Shown here: positions 2,166 to 20,103 of the stretch, in pieces
Layout of the letters: the number at the start of each line of letters is the position of its first letter
Numbering within the stretch: the first letter of the stretch is position 1
From: Candidatus Sungbacteria bacterium RIFCSPHIGHO2_02_FULL_52_23
GTDB taxonomy: Bacteria > Patescibacteriota > Minisyncoccia > Sungbacterales > HO2-52-23
Direction: 5' to 3'
Length of the DNA: 30,570 bases
Assembly: GCA_001820655.1 (NCBI GenBank)
Contig: MHQM01000025.1
Coordinates: forward strand, 1 to 30,570
Notes under the pieces: model-generated
Database searches by the model: none
Told to the model about the DNA's origin: nothing
What the model saw: only the letters and a program-made list of their open reading frames with translations
Translations under genes and position numbers: made by a program

Positions 2166-3032
2166 ATGAATATCATCCAGATCTACAAACGCTTTCCTGC
2201 CCAAAAAGATTGCCTTGCGCATTTAGAAGCCGTCCGGTGGAAAGAGAGCATCGTCTGCCCCTATTGTAGCTCAAAGAGGATTACCTCTATGGTAAAGGAG
2301 CATCGGCATCACTGCAATGCCTGTAATACTTCTTTCGGCGTTACGGTACACACTATTTTTCATAAAACAAAACTTGATCTGCAAAAGTGGTTTTTAGCTA
2401 TCTCTCTGGTGTTAAACGCCAAAAAGGGTGTCAGTGCGCGGCAACTGGCGCGAGACATTGAAGTGAACAAAAATACAGCGTGGTTTGTACTTATGCGTAT
2501 ACGAAAGGCCATGCGCGAAGATGGCGACTTGCTTGAAGGTATTGTAGAGGCGTATGAAACGTATGTGGGCGGTAAAAATCGCAACAAACACAACGATAAG
2601 AAAACAAAGGGCGGACAAGGACGAAGTACTAAAGACAAGACGCCCGTGTTCGGGCTCGTTAAGAGAGGAGGTAAGGTACATGCCCAAAAAGTCAGTAGAG
2701 TCAGCGCAAGTACGCTCCAGTATCTTATCAGGCAGAACGTGAAGAAAGGATCGCATATTATGACAGATGAGTGGGGTGCGTATTTCGGTCTTGAAAAGCG
2801 AGATTATCAGCATACGACAGTGAATCATGGTACAGGTCAGTATGTAATTGGGGACGCACATACGAATACCATAGAGAGCTTTTGGGCGCTTCTGAAACGT
2901 GGGATTATGGGACAGTATCATCACGTTAGCGCAAAGTATCTGGACCGCTATGTGGACGAGTTTTGTTTCCGACACAATAACCGAGGAAATGACGACATAT
3001 TTGCGTTGTGTATTGAAAAGAGCGTTACATAG
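2166..3032 (+). CDS. IS1595-family (ISXO2-like) DDE transposase, first catalytic Asp substituted
   Basis: N-terminal Zn ribbon CPYC..CNAC, HKTKLDLQKWF, VEAYETYVGG (canonical VEADETY), MTDEWGAY, HTNTIESFW, YLDRYVDEFCFRHN. Confidence 0.93.
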   Translation: MNIIQIYKRFPAQKDCLAHLEAVRWKESIVCPYCSSKRITSMVKEHRHHCNACNTSFGVTVHTIFHKTKLDLQKWFLAISLVLNAKKGVSARQLARDIEVNKNTAWFVLMRIRKAMREDGDLLEGIVEAYETYVGGKNRNKHNDKKTKGGQGRSTKDKTPVFGLVKRGGKVHAQKVSRVSASTLQYLIRQNVKKGSHIMTDEWGAYFGLEKRDYQHTTVNHGTGQYVIGDAHTNTIESFWALLKRGIMGQYHHVSAKYLDRYVDEFCFRHNNRGNDDIFALCIEKSVT

Positions 3033-3069
3033 AGCGGACCACCCAATCTAACTCTTAAATAAGCCACTT

Positions 3070-3933
3070 ATGGAGAAAAATATACCTAAAGCATGGGGAA
3101 GCGGACCAATAACCCTTAACGGAGTGGAAATACACTGTGCCGTTCTTGAAGATGGAACTCCTATTTTGAATAAGGGAAGGATGATGAAGGCATTGGGACG
3201 TGCGTGGAGAGGGAAAAGTAGAAGCGATAAACCTACTTTCATTGGAGCGATAAACTTGCAACCTTTCATCAGGCCTGAATTGGGGGAGTTACTCAAGGGG
3301 GTTAAATTTTTTGATGGCGGACGCCTTGCAACAGGATATGATGCAAAGATACTGCCTATGATTTGCCGTGTGTATAGGGACGCGGAACGGGCAGATGTCC
3401 TAACACCCAATCAATTACCAACAGCGCGAGTTTGCGAAACGATGGCAGATGCTTTCTCGGCAGTCGGCATTACTGCTCTGATCTATGAACAACTCGGATA
3501 CGAGAAATTCAAGCATCCCGAGGCGTTCAAGATGCTCATTGAAAGTTATCTTGAGGCAGAAGTCCGCAAGTGGATGAAGGAATTTCCCGATGAATTGTTT
3601 TATCAAATGGACCGGATATACGGTAATCAACCAACTACTTCCCGAAATAGACCTCAGTATTACGCCAAGTTTATACGAAAGTATATCTACGAGCCATTTG
3701 AAAAAGGTGAGGTATTAAAACTACTTGACGCGAGAAATCCCCAAAACGAAAAAGGGACGAGAAAATATCGTCATCATTCACTTACCAGTGAAAAGGTAGG
3801 ATTGCCAGCACTCCGTTCTCAAATCTGGCAAGTTATAGCCACGCTTAAAATATCCGCCAATAAAACAAAGTACGAAAATAATTATGCTCGGATGATGGGG
3901 CAAGCATACCAAGCCGACTTATGGGATAGCTAA
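3070..3933 (+). CDS. P63C-domain protein (IS cargo)
   Basis: C-terminal KWMKEFPDELFYQMDRIYG...RPQYYAKFIRKYIYEP resembles the phage P63C domain; N-terminal I.CAVLEDG motif. Confidence 0.75.
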   Translation: MEKNIPKAWGSGPITLNGVEIHCAVLEDGTPILNKGRMMKALGRAWRGKSRSDKPTFIGAINLQPFIRPELGELLKGVKFFDGGRLATGYDAKILPMICRVYRDAERADVLTPNQLPTARVCETMADAFSAVGITALIYEQLGYEKFKHPEAFKMLIESYLEAEVRKWMKEFPDELFYQMDRIYGNQPTTSRNRPQYYAKFIRKYIYEPFEKGEVLKLLDARNPQNEKGTRKYRHHSLTSEKVGLPALRSQIWQVIATLKISANKTKYENNYARMMGQAYQADLWDS

Positions 3934-8745: not shown

Positions 8746-8753
8746 AAAGGAGG
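8746..8753 (+). promoter_or_regulatory. Strong Shine-Dalgarno site of the cas12 gene
   Basis: AAAGGAGG 6 nt upstream of the GTG start at 8760. Confidence 0.75.
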
Positions 8754-8759
8754 CGCATC

Positions 8760-11327
8760 GTGGACAACGCGAATAAGCCCAGTACCAAATCCTTGGTCAA
8801 CACGACTCGCATCAGCGATCACTTTGGGGTAACTCCCGGGCAGGTCACGCGCGTATTCTCTTTTGGCATAATACCGACAAAGAGACAATACGCCATTATA
8901 GAACGGTGGTTTGCCGCGGTAGAGGCCGCGCGTGAGCGACTCTATGGAATGCTCTATGCGCATTTCCAAGAAAATCCCCCTGCCTACCTGAAAGAAAAAT
9001 TTTCGTACGAGACATTTTTCAAAGGCAGACCCGTACTTAACGGCCTCCGTGATATTGATCCCACGATCATGACATCTGCCGTTTTTACGGCACTACGGCA
9101 CAAGGCCGAAGGCGCGATGGCCGCATTCCACACCAACCACCGACGGCTTTTTGAGGAAGCCCGGAAGAAAATGCGGGAATACGCCGAATGCCTGAAGGCC
9201 AATGAGGCATTGCTCCGGGGTGCGGCGGACATAGATTGGGACAAAATTGTCAACGCCCTGCGTACCCGCCTCAATACCTGTCTGGCACCCGAGTACGATG
9301 CGGTGATTGCGGATTTTGGCGCACTGTGCGCATTCCGGGCGCTCATTGCAGAAACAAACGCTCTAAAAGGCGCGTACAACCACGCGCTCAATCAGATGCT
9401 TCCCGCTCTTGTGAAAGTGGATGAGCCGGAAGAAGCCGAGGAGTCGCCCCGTCTCCGATTCTTCAATGGGCGGATCAACGACCTTCCGAAATTTCCCGTT
9501 GCCGAGCGCGAGACGCCGCCGGATACCGAGACGATCATCCGGCAACTGGAAGATATGGCGCGGGTCATACCGGACACTGCCGAAATCCTCGGCTATATCC
9601 ATCGCATAAGGCATAAAGCCGCGCGCCGGAAGCCCGGAAGCGCCGTACCGCTACCCCAACGCGTCGCTCTCTACTGTGCGATCCGCATGGAAAGGAATCC
9701 CGAAGAAGATCCGTCAACGGTCGCCGGGCATTTCCTCGGCGAAATTGATCGGGTATGCGAAAAGCGCCGTCAAGGACTTGTCCGCACGCCTTTTGACAGC
9801 CAGATCAGGGCAAGATACATGGATATCATCTCTTTTCGCGCGACGCTCGCGCATCCTGACCGGTGGACCGAGATCCAGTTCCTCCGGAGCAATGCGGCAA
9901 GCAGAAGAGTACGCGCCGAGACAATATCGGCCCCGTTTGAAGGGTTTTCATGGACGAGCAACCGGACAAATCCCGCGCCTCAGTACGGCATGGCGCTTGC
10001 CAAAGACGCTAATGCTCCGGCCGATGCCCCGGAGTTGTGTATCTGTCTTTCTCCATCATCTGCCGCATTCTCTGTCAGAGAAAAAGGAGGAGATTTGATC
10101 TATATGAGACCGACCGGCGGCAGACGAGGCAAAGACAATCCGGGCAAAGAGATCACCTGGGTACCCGGATCTTTTGACGAGTACCCCGCATCCGGTGTAG
10201 CACTGAAACTCCGCCTTTATTTCGGCAGATCACAGGCGCGCAGAATGCTCACCAATAAAACGTGGGGCCTCTTGTCGGATAATCCGCGCGTATTCGCCGC
10301 CAACGCCGAGCTGGTGGGAAAAAAAAGAAATCCCCAAGACCGGTGGAAGTTATTCTTCCATATGGTAATCAGCGGACCTCCTCCGGTGGAGTATCTGGAT
10401 TTCTCCTCCGATGTGCGTTCCCGGGCCCGAACCGTCATCGGGATAAACCGCGGCGAGGTCAATCCGCTTGCCTATGCCGTGGTGTCTGTAGAGGATGGCC
10501 AAGTGCTTGAGGAGGGTCTTCTCGGCAAAAAAGAGTACATAGACCAGTTGATAGAGACCAGACGCCGGATCAGCGAGTACCAATCCCGCGAACAAACCCC
10601 GCCCCGCGATTTACGCCAGAGGGTCCGGCATCTGCAGGATACGGTTTTGGGAAGCGCCCGGGCAAAGATCCATTCGCTGATCGCATTCTGGAAGGGTATC
10701 CTCGCGATAGAACGGCTGGATGACCAGTTCCATGGCAGGGAGCAAAAGATTATTCCCAAAAAGACCTACCTTGCCAATAAAACGGGCTTTATGAACGCGT
10801 TGAGTTTTTCCGGCGCGGTCCGCGTTGACAAAAAAGGCAACCCATGGGGAGGTATGATAGAGATTTATCCGGGCGGCATTTCCCGCACCTGCACACAGTG
10901 CGGAACCGTCTGGCTTGCGAGGCGACCGAAAAATCCCGGACACCGCGACGCCATGGTGGTCATTCCCGATATCGTGGATGATGCGGCCGCAACGGGGTTT
11001 GACAACGTGGATTGCGATGCAGGCACTGTGGATTACGGGGAACTTTTTACGCTCAGTAGAGAGTGGGTCCGGCTGACTCCGCGTTATAGTCGCGTCATGC
11101 GGGGGACATTGGGAGACCTTGAACGGGCGATCCGGCAAGGAGATGATCGCAAGAGCAGACAAATGCTCGAGCTTGCGCTTGAGCCGCAACCGCAATGGGG
11201 GCAGTTTTTTTGCCACCGATGCGGATTCAACGGACAGTCCGACGTGCTGGCCGCGACCAATCTGGCGCGGCGCGCCATATCTTTGATCAGGCGCCTGCCG
11301 GATACTGATACTCCCCCAACCCCTTGA
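8760..11327 (+). CDS. Type V CRISPR effector, CasX/Cas12e-like, 855 aa, RuvC-I D>N (probably nuclease-dead)
   Basis: C-terminal split RuvC: VIGINRGEVNP (N563; CasX has IG(V/I)DRGENIP), LAIERL (E651), SRTCTQCG...FFCHRCG Zn fingers, QSDVLAATNLARR (D828). A CRISPR array lies 213 bp downstream. Confidence 0.88.
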   Translation: MDNANKPSTKSLVNTTRISDHFGVTPGQVTRVFSFGIIPTKRQYAIIERWFAAVEAARERLYGMLYAHFQENPPAYLKEKFSYETFFKGRPVLNGLRDIDPTIMTSAVFTALRHKAEGAMAAFHTNHRRLFEEARKKMREYAECLKANEALLRGAADIDWDKIVNALRTRLNTCLAPEYDAVIADFGALCAFRALIAETNALKGAYNHALNQMLPALVKVDEPEEAEESPRLRFFNGRINDLPKFPVAERETPPDTETIIRQLEDMARVIPDTAEILGYIHRIRHKAARRKPGSAVPLPQRVALYCAIRMERNPEEDPSTVAGHFLGEIDRVCEKRRQGLVRTPFDSQIRARYMDIISFRATLAHPDRWTEIQFLRSNAASRRVRAETISAPFEGFSWTSNRTNPAPQYGMALAKDANAPADAPELCICLSPSSAAFSVREKGGDLIYMRPTGGRRGKDNPGKEITWVPGSFDEYPASGVALKLRLYFGRSQARRMLTNKTWGLLSDNPRVFAANAELVGKKRNPQDRWKLFFHMVISGPPPVEYLDFSSDVRSRARTVIGINRGEVNPLAYAVVSVEDGQVLEEGLLGKKEYIDQLIETRRRISEYQSREQTPPRDLRQRVRHLQDTVLGSARAKIHSLIAFWKGILAIERLDDQFHGREQKIIPKKTYLANKTGFMNALSFSGAVRVDKKGNPWGGMIEIYPGGISRTCTQCGTVWLARRPKNPGHRDAMVVIPDIVDDAAATGFDNVDCDAGTVDYGELFTLSREWVRLTPRYSRVMRGTLGDLERAIRQGDDRKSRQMLELALEPQPQWGQFFCHRCGFNGQSDVLAATNLARRAISLIRRLPDTDTPPTP

Positions 11328-11352
11328 CAAGATAGCGGGATTAAGCTATCTT
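11324..11352 (+). promoter_or_regulatory. Promoter overlapping the cas12 stop codon, containing an inverted repeat
   Basis: TTGACA (11324-11329), N17, TATCTT (11347-11352). The inverted repeat AAGATAGC/GCTATCTT (11329-11336 / 11345-11352) overlaps both boxes. Confidence 0.65.
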
Positions 11353-11358
11353 CTTCCC

Positions 11359-11515
11359 CAAGCTCCTTATATAAGTAGTATCCATATAGAGGGGCCCATT
11401 GGCCGCTTTAAAATCGTTTCAACGGCCAATCCCCCGACCGGATTACCGGTCGGGTATAAAAGCTTCCTCTCATGAAAAGAGCCCTGTCTTCCTCGCGGAG
11501 ATAGGGCTCAAAAAA
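11359..11515 (+). ncRNA. Candidate tracr/scout-like RNA
   Basis: Non-coding stretch between effector and array with three hairpins (11398-11430, 8 bp; 11433-11454, 9 bp perfect; 11479-11509, 13 bp with 2 G-U) and short repeat-complementary segments. Boundaries and strand are inferred. Confidence 0.5.
11479..11509 (-). terminator. Possible intrinsic terminator for minus-strand transcription
   Basis: 13-bp stem followed on the minus strand by TTTT. On the plus strand it is followed by an A-run, so it is not a plus-strand terminator. Confidence 0.4.
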
Positions 11516-11540
11516 TTTAATGCTTGATGATCATATTCTC

Positions 11541-11764
11541 GTTTACACACTCCCTCTCATAGGGTGGCTCTTAGACGGGGCTGCTCATTACGGCTGTTGG
11601 GTTTACACACTCCCTCTCATGAGGTAACTCTTGGACTAGGCGTATCCAAGGCAACCTCGCATGTTTTTACATACCCCCTCTCATGGGATGGCTCTTAGAC
11701 GACCTCTTGGCTTCGGGGAACCTCCTGTTTACACACTCCCTCTCATGGGGGATGGCTCTTAGAC
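11541..11764. CRISPR. Degenerate CRISPR mini-array: 4 repeats (36, 36, 36, 38 nt), 3 spacers (24, 28, 26 nt)
   Basis: R1 11541-11576 GTTTACACACTCCCTCTCATAGGGTGGCTCTTAGAC; R2 11601-11636; R3 11665-11700; R4 11727-11764. Spacers 11577-11600, 11637-11664, 11701-11726. Orientation not resolved. Confidence 0.92.
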
Positions 11765-11893
11765 AGCGCCTTGAGCCTATCAAAGAGCTTTTGGGAATGT
11801 AGCGCAAAAGAATATTGAGCGCAAGAGACGCATAAAGACCAACATTTCCAGAAAGTTGGCAACGCAATGATTTATAAATCCAAATCTGCACGG

Positions 11894-19557: not shown

Positions 19558-20103
19558 TTAAGATACTCTACCGATTGTCCCTTGCTCGCGGACGCTAAAG
19601 ATGTGTACCTTGCCCGCCAACGCCAAATCATCCAACAACGTAATAAAACTCACAGGGAGAGGACAATCACCTATCCACACACTTTTTTGAAAATGGCGAA
19701 AGCCGCACGTGATCAGCTCCGCACGCACGGCAGTTCGTTTTTGCCGTTCCCGTTCGGGGATATCAAAAATAACAAGTCGTGTAATTCCGTCACTTACGTT
19801 ATTTTCTATATTTGCTTCCACCTGATCTACCCGCGCTCTTCCCGCAGGCGACAAACGCCATTTCGCGTTTTTTCTGCCACCCATTCGGACAATCAATCCT
19901 TCTCGTTGCAAGCGCCACAAAATCGTCGATACCGTATGACGAGTAATTTTTCTTGACCGTTCCAAACCGAGCAGAGGACGCCACATATTGGCATAAGAAT
20001 ACTTTCTTGGGAAAAATGCGCCCAACGTCGCTTCACCAAGACCTCCTAAAATCTCAAGCGTCGCACGACCAATAGAGTATTTCTTTTCCTCCTGGTTTTT
20101 CAT
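19558..20103 (-). CDS. PaaX-like transcriptional regulator (wHTH plus Cas2-like domain)
   Basis: TILWRLQREGLI...WRLSPAG (wHTH) and RLVIFDIPERERQKR..VR.EL...GF...QKSVWI (PaaX central, Cas2-like domain). Confidence 0.8.
   Translation of the reverse strand: MKNQEEKKYSIGRATLEILGGLGEATLGAFFPRKYSYANMWRPLLGLERSRKITRHTVSTILWRLQREGLIVRMGGRKNAKWRLSPAGRARVDQVEANIENNVSDGITRLVIFDIPERERQKRTAVRAELITCGFRHFQKSVWIGDCPLPVSFITLLDDLALAGKVHIFSVREQGTIGRVS

Follow-up and report, generated by a model that had tools for sequence, protein, structure and literature searches.

A compact Cas12e with a substituted RuvC active site in two sister species of ultra-small bacteria, a candidate RNA-guided DNA binder

Can a Cas12e protein whose first catalytic aspartate has been replaced by asparagine still serve its host, and if so, in what role? 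The question is raised by a locus of Candidatus Sungbacteria bacterium RIFCSPHIGHO2_02_FULL_52_23, an ultra-small groundwater bacterium of the candidate phyla radiation (CPR). The locus lies on contig MHQM01000025.1 (GCA_001820655.1), whose positions 1-30,570 are called the window here. It comprises a cas12e-like gene for an 855-aa protein, a predicted trans-activating CRISPR RNA (tracrRNA) and a short CRISPR array. With modest confidence, we favour the reading that this is a maintained, cleavage-impaired Cas12e that would act as an RNA-guided binder against foreign DNA. This reading is strengthened by two further active-site substitutions, purifying selection on the gene, a conserved tracrRNA and an array that looks live.

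The effector and its RuvC active site

The effector gene and the codons on which the argument turns are as follows.

8746-8753, plus strand: Shine-Dalgarno-like AAAGGAGG, read directly, 6 nt ahead of the GTG start of cas12e
8760-11327, plus strand: cas12e-like gene with a GTG start and an uninterrupted frame, 855 aa
10446-10448, plus strand: AAC codon of Asn563, in the catalytic RuvC-I column, where 17/17 distant relatives have Asp
10710-10712, plus strand: GAA codon of Glu651 (RuvC-II), kept and invariant in a 19-sequence alignment
10878-10880, plus strand: ATT codon of Ile707, where the TSxxC motif ahead of the first CxxC has an invariant Thr in the other relatives
11187-11189, plus strand: CAA codon of Gln810, in place of an invariant Arg; the second CxxC follows 8 residues later and Asp828 18 residues later
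11241-11243, plus strand: GAC codon of Asp828 (RuvC-III), kept and invariant in the same alignment

The motif IGINRGEVNP (residues 560-569) holds the asparagine. In the family alignment, which comprises the 855-aa protein, its orthologue P0006 and 17 distant relatives, the RuvC-I column is Asp (IG[IVLM]DRGE) in all 17 of the latter and Asn solely in the 855-aa protein and P0006. Pairwise alignment to PDB 8xyc places N563 on residue 576 of dVemCas12e, a dead mutant carrying D576A/E662A/D837A (PMC11685505). The original prediction had read this motif as a D>N change in an otherwise undamaged gene with its remaining RuvC and zinc-binding residues intact, and the alignment bears it out: the frame is open, and E651, D828 and the four cysteines of the zinc ribbon (C711, C714, C818 and C821), which is split round a target-strand-loading insert, are all invariant. 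The triad here reads N563-E651-D828. Because the D-E-D triad is incomplete, the 855-aa system is a variant of Cas12e and not an ordinary member.

A screen covering 55 columns, those with a conservation of 85% or more among the other relatives, revealed that, beyond D563N, the Sungbacteria pair departs at two positions that are invariant in 17/17 others. These substitutions, T707I and R810Q, had not been part of the original prediction. In Cas12f, the active-site arginine R490 lies 10 residues before C500 and 20 before D510, and its alanine mutant lacks cleavage (PMC8053092). By spacing rather than by alignment, Gln810 would occupy an analogous position.

Both additional substitutions are already present in P0014, a C-terminal fragment (55-59% identical) encoded in an open frame on a 547-nt contig of sample ERZ27276474, an unrelated metagenome. 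RuvC-I falls outside this contig; Asp828, the cysteines and the target-strand-loading insert are kept. The codons in the window, P0006 and P0014 are ATT/ATC/ATC at 707 and CAA/CAA/CAG at 810. Since they differ among the three lineages, Ile707 and Gln810 have been preserved through synonymous change.

Replacing the first carboxylate Asp by Asn inactivates RNase H-fold nucleases, as in RuvC D7N, RNase HI D10N and integrase D64N, and we know of no studied RNase H-fold nuclease whose first Asp tolerates this change. By homology, the 855-aa protein has probably lost cleavage. The competing view is that it is still an RNA-guided nuclease or nickase, in which Asn563 helps to hold the metal or another residue compensates, and that it provides cutting immunity as a slow enzyme. 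This would explain why E651, D828, the zinc ribbon and the target-strand-loading insert are conserved, also in the 55-59% relative, why the RuvC half is under purifying selection and why the array resembles an immune memory of foreign DNA. However, the Asp is invariant in the other family members and is the very residue mutated to kill VemCas12e, two further invariant residues near the site are replaced, one of them analogous by its spacing to an Arg essential in Cas12f, and the first Asp of studied RNase H-fold nucleases is not known to tolerate Asn. We regard retained cutting as unlikely.

The homology of the 855-aa protein with Cas12e is secure, because family-model, profile and structural matches all agree. 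The NCBIfam equivalog for Cas12e/CasX (NF045604) matches residues 27-840 over model positions 2-886 of 886 with 726.5 bits, against a cut-off of 200; Pfam gives weak RuvC and TNB signals and nothing more. The 19-sequence profile retrieves PlmCasX (1e-100), VemCas12e (5e-89), DpbCasX (2e-84) and LesCas12e (7e-82) from the PDB, with Cas12a far behind, and the entries 7way, 8xyc, 6ny1 and 8y2i are matched almost end to end. An AlphaFold (AF2) model of the protein (pLDDT 82.2, pTM 0.65) was searched with Foldseek, and its seven best PDB matches are all Cas12e (TM 0.5-0.66). Together with its place in the tree (below), these matches confirm the CasX/Cas12e membership that had been predicted.

An exhaustive HMMER search of 1.8 billion representatives yielded 31 relatives, consisting of a compact clade (816-911 aa, 24-35% identity) and larger proteins (~960-1000 aa). 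A word-indexed homologue search returned the 855-aa protein itself only, and no match for its RuvC fragment (residues 520-720). The protein had been described as about 130 aa shorter than CasX. That holds against DpbCasX (986 aa) and PlmCasX (978 aa), but it is no special trait, as 855 aa is normal for the clade; the compact VemCas12e and LesCas12e have 880 and 899 aa.

Age of the substitution and selection on the gene

The orthologue P0006 (857 aa, 90% identical) is encoded at the syntenic locus of a sister species (GCA_964646295.1). Every cluster member that spans the site has the Asn: this orthologue, two fragments from ENA (360 and 154 aa) and a partial NCBI protein from a metagenome-assembled genome (MAG). 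Furthermore, Logan contigs of the sequencing runs X1 and X2, both samples being possibly the source of the window, span codon 563 without a variant. The codon was not cleanly covered in runs X7 and X13; confirmation comes from the separate assemblies and X1/X2. Two checks suggested in the original prediction, of the sequence data at position 10446 and of the residue in homologues, both uphold the asparagine, which the 90% orthologue shares and for which the 17 distant relatives have Asp. Sequencing or assembly error is ruled out by its presence in the orthologue and in independent assemblies.

The public labels of these sequences conflict. The sister-species MAG is deposited as an uncultured Candidatus Saccharibacteria, and the near-identical partial protein P0003, which comes from a different MAG, as Candidatus Sungbacteria.

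The prediction had also allowed for a recent single-base mutation. This is ruled out, since the Asn is common to two species whose synonymous divergence is 0.21 in cas12e and 0.24-0.38 in neighbouring genes. The ratio of nonsynonymous to synonymous substitution rates (dN/dS) of cas12e is 0.23 overall and 0.16-0.37 by segment, compared with 0.03-0.26 in flanking genes, and the synonymous excess is highly significant (Fisher P ~1e-23). Given these ratios, the Asn-bearing protein is under purifying selection and hence functional. A pseudogene is disfavoured by the intact frame in two species and by the overall ratio.

In a maximum-likelihood tree, which carries a compositional-heterogeneity flag, the Asn pair is sister to the Asp-bearing proteins P0009 and P0010 inside the compact clade (support 95/98). 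Its stem measures 1.65 substitutions per site, 2-3 times longer than those of its sisters (0.5-0.9). Since Asp-bearing compact Cas12e proteins surround this lineage in the tree and its stem is long, the D>N change is derived and was accompanied by a burst of change.

The tracrRNA, the array and its spacers

Downstream of the effector gene, the window carries the following RNA-guide elements.

11324-11352, plus strand: sigma-70-like promoter TTGACA-17-TATCTT (10/12 matches), overlapping the cas12e stop codon, candidate promoter of the tracrRNA
11394-11518, plus strand: predicted tracrRNA core, with hairpin 1, hairpin 2, TATAAAAG, anti-repeat and hairpin 3
11462-11475, plus strand: anti-repeat GCTTCCTCTCATGA, which complements the repeats as read on the minus strand
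11479-11509, no strand assigned: hairpin 3, a 13-bp stem followed by no U-tract on the plus strand and by UUUUC on the minus strand
11541-11764, minus strand (probable direction of transcription): CRISPR array of 4 non-identical repeats and 3 spacers
11541-11576, 11601-11636, 11665-11700 and 11727-11764: the repeats, 36-38 nt, all four different
11765-11893, minus strand: putative leader, 95% identical between the two species and placed at this end by the polarity of array differences and of the polymorphism in runs X2 and X7

The same order of elements occurs directly 3' of cas12e at three loci of relatives (L008, L009 and L014), with a shared layout of hairpin, TCCYT, hairpin, GCAYAAAAG, an anti-repeat of 14-19 nt and a terminal hairpin. 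In an RNAalifold consensus of five loci, 18 of the 30 consensus pairs are compensatory, with both sides changed. Because the layout matches that of relatives and covariation supports the pairs, we identify the 125-nt block as a predicted tracrRNA of the Cas12e family on the plus strand. An Rfam scan matched no family to it. Compared with the sister species, the block differs at one of 125 nt, where a G.U pair within a stem becomes G-C; under 18% neutral divergence, so few changes have a binomial P of ~5e-10. The 5' end of the tracrRNA may lie near 11360. Both hexamers of the candidate promoter are kept in the orthologue, and the spacer between them differs at 3 positions.

The anti-repeat pairs with 29 repeat variants at a mean of 13.0/14 positions when the repeats are read from the minus strand, versus 11.7/14 in the opposite orientation. 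The gap arises because the repeats vary where a G.U wobble preserves the pair; repeat variation is confined to such positions. RNAduplex energies alone left the orientation unsettled, which the wobble count, tracrRNA homology and array polarity settled. Hairpin 3 may serve as a terminator where transcripts converge.

At L014 and L009, it is the plus strand of the repeats to which the anti-repeat is complementary, whereas here it is the minus strand. We therefore take the array to be inverted compared with canonical loci, and it would be read from the leader toward the tracrRNA gene. The minus-strand repeats end in an invariant AAAC, as does the L014 repeat, and conserved 3' termini of Cas12e repeats have been reported in the literature.

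The array of the canonical relative L014 has 14 identical repeats and spacers of 34-35 nt. The three spacers of the window are 24, 28 and 26 nt long, and the sister-species array (L007:8785-10366) has ~26 repeats, nearly all unique, with spacers of 24-28 nt. One spacer is common to both species with 1 mismatch, and the leader-side units are lineage-specific in both. In the L007 array, one unit near 9777 also has an internal deletion, a 35-nt 'spacer' includes a partial repeat start near 10296-10330, and the two repeats closest to the leader have an identical 28-nt 3' part.

The window lineage is itself polymorphic. In runs X2 and X7, the leader-proximal repeat (11727-11764), which bears a 2-nt insertion unique to this lineage, is present in ~3 copies (depth 33-44 versus 14.7), and between the identical copies there are two extra spacers, one of 26 nt beginning with TAATTTTTTTGTCC and one of 24 nt beginning with GTGAGAAGTGGC. 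The repeat is single-copy in the window assembly and in run X1. This implies that array units were gained after the species split, or very recently lost from a recently expanded array, and hence after the D>N change. The differences between arrays and the polymorphism suggest that the array was in use after that change. We tentatively speculate that it keeps gaining 24-26-nt spacers after the loss of the Asp, which would amount to a binding-only adaptive immunity whose spacers are acquired in trans or by an unrecognised route, with a shorter ruler than in canonical Cas12e systems.

These features also bear on the notion of a decaying relic that lost its adaptation genes, then its catalytic residues, and is heading to become a pseudogene. 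Cas1, Cas2 and Cas4 are indeed missing, the repeats are heterogeneous, the array of the window has shrunk and the stem branch is long. Set against these signs are the intact frame in two species with a dN/dS of 0.23, a tracrRNA with 1 change in 125 nt at a synonymous divergence of 0.2-0.38, the preserved repeat core and its pairing with the tracrRNA, and the persistence of the substitutions in the 55-59% relative with an open frame. Decay is the least probable of the readings considered here.

Neither host genome is matched beyond chance by the 5 spacers of the window lineage or the ~25 of the orthologue; the best matches are 16-17 nt with a mismatch (E ~0.5). Searched against 62 genomes of the order, the orthologue array matches only itself, in genome G013. 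No protospacer was found in exact scans of viral contigs with five spacers, in metagenome contigs with one spacer or in a phage collection with the 25-spacer orthologue array.

The spacers speak to whether the system regulates host genes, as TldR proteins do, with guides aimed at its own chromosomal promoters. The cassette sits stably among housekeeping genes, has no adaptation genes and conserves one spacer between species, all of which would suit such a regulator. Yet no spacer matches either genome beyond chance, which led us to reject self-targeting, and the two species have almost no spacers in common, unlike a fixed regulatory guide. We consider host-gene regulation very improbable. Of the RNA-guided repressor or roadblock originally proposed, the non-cutting binder remains the best supported part, but repression of host genes is unsupported, as ~30 spacers lack a host match beyond chance.

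Genomic setting, proposed mechanism and relation to known systems

The cassette is flanked by housekeeping genes, with the methionyl-tRNA synthetase MetRS, an AI-2E transporter and an M16 peptidase encoded upstream and a class II aminoacyl-tRNA synthetase (aaRS) downstream. The cas12e gene occurs in 2 of 62 species genomes of the order, those of the window and its sister species, whose intergenic regions upstream of cas12e are 91% identical. A search for related loci retrieved the sister genome only among genome contigs and nothing among metagenome contigs. In one congener, the aaRS and M16 peptidase genes abut directly; in another, the gap between them holds small unrelated open reading frames (ORFs) and no remnant of the cassette. 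The cassette is therefore an insertion confined to two sister species.

The same junction in the congener G011 (L025:2830-3700) contains ~800 nt of sequence in which two short ORFs, of 51 and 82 aa, resemble an antitoxin-type pair, and the junction seems to be an insertion hot spot. The sister species carries two additional minus-strand ORFs (120 and 89 aa, no Pfam match) between the M16 peptidase gene and cas12e (L007:4923-5573) that are absent from the window. Elsewhere in the window, positions 2166-3933 encode two proteins in succession, an IS1595-family transposase of 288 aa and a P63C-domain protein of 287 aa.

No Tn7-like genes lie beside the cassette in the window, in line with the original prediction. 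A genome-wide search for TniQ carries no weight, as its control was silent too. A role as a component of a CRISPR-associated transposon was rejected, given that the flanks are an M16 peptidase and a class II aaRS gene that abut in a congener. More generally, a dead effector could serve as a guide-directed recruiter that brings or activates a nuclease, transposase or RNA polymerase encoded elsewhere. Nuclease-dead type V proteins recurrently operate with partners (Cas12k, and Cas12f-like proteins with sigma factors), and the whole scaffold is retained here despite the loss of catalysis. But there is no conserved partner gene beside the cassette, whose housekeeping flanks are adjacent in the cassette-free congener, and nothing Tn7-like is nearby. 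We give recruitment little credence.

Cas1 was not found in the window genome (87.7% complete) or the sister genome, and there is no cas4-cas1-cas2 module within the window. Pfam matches to Cas2 proved to be PaaX-type proteins and a match to Cas4 a generic PD-(D/E)XK nuclease. The spurious Cas2 matches are due to three paralogues (181-196 aa) with the Cas2-like central domain of PaaX that are encoded in the 695-kb genome, one in the window (19558-20103, minus strand) and two on contigs C31 and C34 (L005 and L006). All four Asp-bearing relatives with enough context (4/4) have cas1, cas2 and cas4 beside the effector. The gene of another Asp-bearing relative, P0008 (L010:2163-3491), adjoins a ParB_N and N6/N4 methyltransferase gene, not cas1/2/4, within its 6.5-kb contig, and this neighbourhood may represent a mobile-element context for compact Cas12e.

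We propose that effector, tracrRNA and array form a type V-E module, domesticated or streamlined, whose insertion between a pair of housekeeping genes dates to the ancestor of the two sister CPR species. The plus-strand promoter that overlaps the cas12e stop codon would drive the tracrRNA, and convergent transcription of the array would start at the leader (11765-11893) on the minus strand. The 13-14-nt anti-repeat could pair with each repeat, G.U wobbles absorbing repeat variation, and the resulting duplex of tracrRNA and CRISPR RNA (crRNA) is probably processed by the host RNase III, which is encoded in the window genome. The protein may load a guide ending in a ~20-25-nt spacer, recognise a protospacer-adjacent motif and form an R-loop. 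Lacking the metal-binding RuvC-I Asp and an active-site Arg, for which it has Asn and Gln, it would cut very poorly or not at all. Interference would instead come from occupancy: like Cas12m and Cas12c, the bound protein would obstruct the transcription or replication of foreign DNA. The loss of cleavage, the crRNA strand, the processing route, the foreign targets and silencing itself are predictions drawn from the sequence and its homologues.

Several observations weigh against this proposal. The protein keeps E651, D828, the zinc-ribbon cysteines and the target-strand-loading insert in its entirety, and its RuvC half is still constrained (dN/dS 0.30-0.37), so that some catalytic or strand-loading function could persist. 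The equivalence of Q810 to the active-site Arg of Cas12f and Cas12a is one of spacing and not of structural superposition. The full-length Asn sequences number only two and are close kin. No protospacer was found in any collection searched, which makes foreign targeting an assumption. A sigma-70 scan of the minus strand gave no strong promoter match in the proposed leader, and the array appears to have grown with no detectable Cas1-Cas2 to explain it.

The closest known systems are those of Cas12e/CasX (type V-E), above all the compact VemCas12e and LesCas12e, which lack the NTSB domain (PDB 8xyc and 8y2i). The likeness extends over the full-length sequence and fold and includes the zinc ribbon with its inserted target-strand-loading region, the 36-nt repeats and a tracrRNA that is encoded beside the effector with the same hairpin and anti-repeat layout. 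OpbCas12e likewise has no adaptation module, and its tracrRNA lies between cas12e and the array (PMC11685505). The present system differs in having Asn for the RuvC-I Asp, and Ile and Gln for the invariant Thr707 and Arg810. Its array runs opposite to cas12e and the tracrRNA, no two repeats are alike, and its spacers are 24-28 nt rather than the 34-35 nt of L014. To our knowledge, all characterised Cas12e proteins cut DNA.

Cas12m and Cas12c are also compact single effectors with an array, and the silencing of invaders by crRNA-guided binding without cleavage that we propose here would resemble theirs. They belong to distantly related families and keep an intact RuvC triad, which they use for pre-crRNA processing, whereas the present system has a broken triad and uses a tracrRNA. 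For the 855-aa protein, the top matches by family and by structure are all Cas12e, so it is not a Cas12m and the likeness lies in the proposed function only. Cas12k (type V-K) is naturally RuvC-inactivated and tracrRNA-dependent, and its arrays commonly lack a local adaptation module. It resides inside Tn7-like transposons with tnsB, tnsC and tniQ, in contrast to the aaRS and peptidase genes that flank the present cassette. TldR and exapted Cas12f-like transcription factors are further RuvC nucleases that lost catalytic residues and were kept as DNA binders. They rely on a single fixed promoter guide and have no array, whereas the multi-spacer array here is different in the two species and lacks host matches.

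Identical copies of the protein are already public in NCBI, UniRef, ENA and JGI collections, and a relative at 90% identity bears the Candidatus Sungbacteria label. Full-text literature searches found no paper that pairs CasX/Cas12e with Sungbacteria and none on a natural RuvC-substituted Cas12e. The value of the finding is tempered by the public sequence, by dead type V effectors being an established theme and by a loss of cleavage that is predicted from homology.

If the favoured reading is true, type V-E would join the RuvC effectors that have repeatedly been turned into RNA-guided binders (Cas12k, Cas12m, Cas12c and TldR). Tools based on dCasX are made by mutating exactly the RuvC-I Asp that is replaced here, and the protein would offer a naturally optimised compact scaffold for CRISPR interference. 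The locus also raises the questions of how binding alone may protect an ultra-small symbiotic bacterium and how its array could change without Cas1-Cas2.

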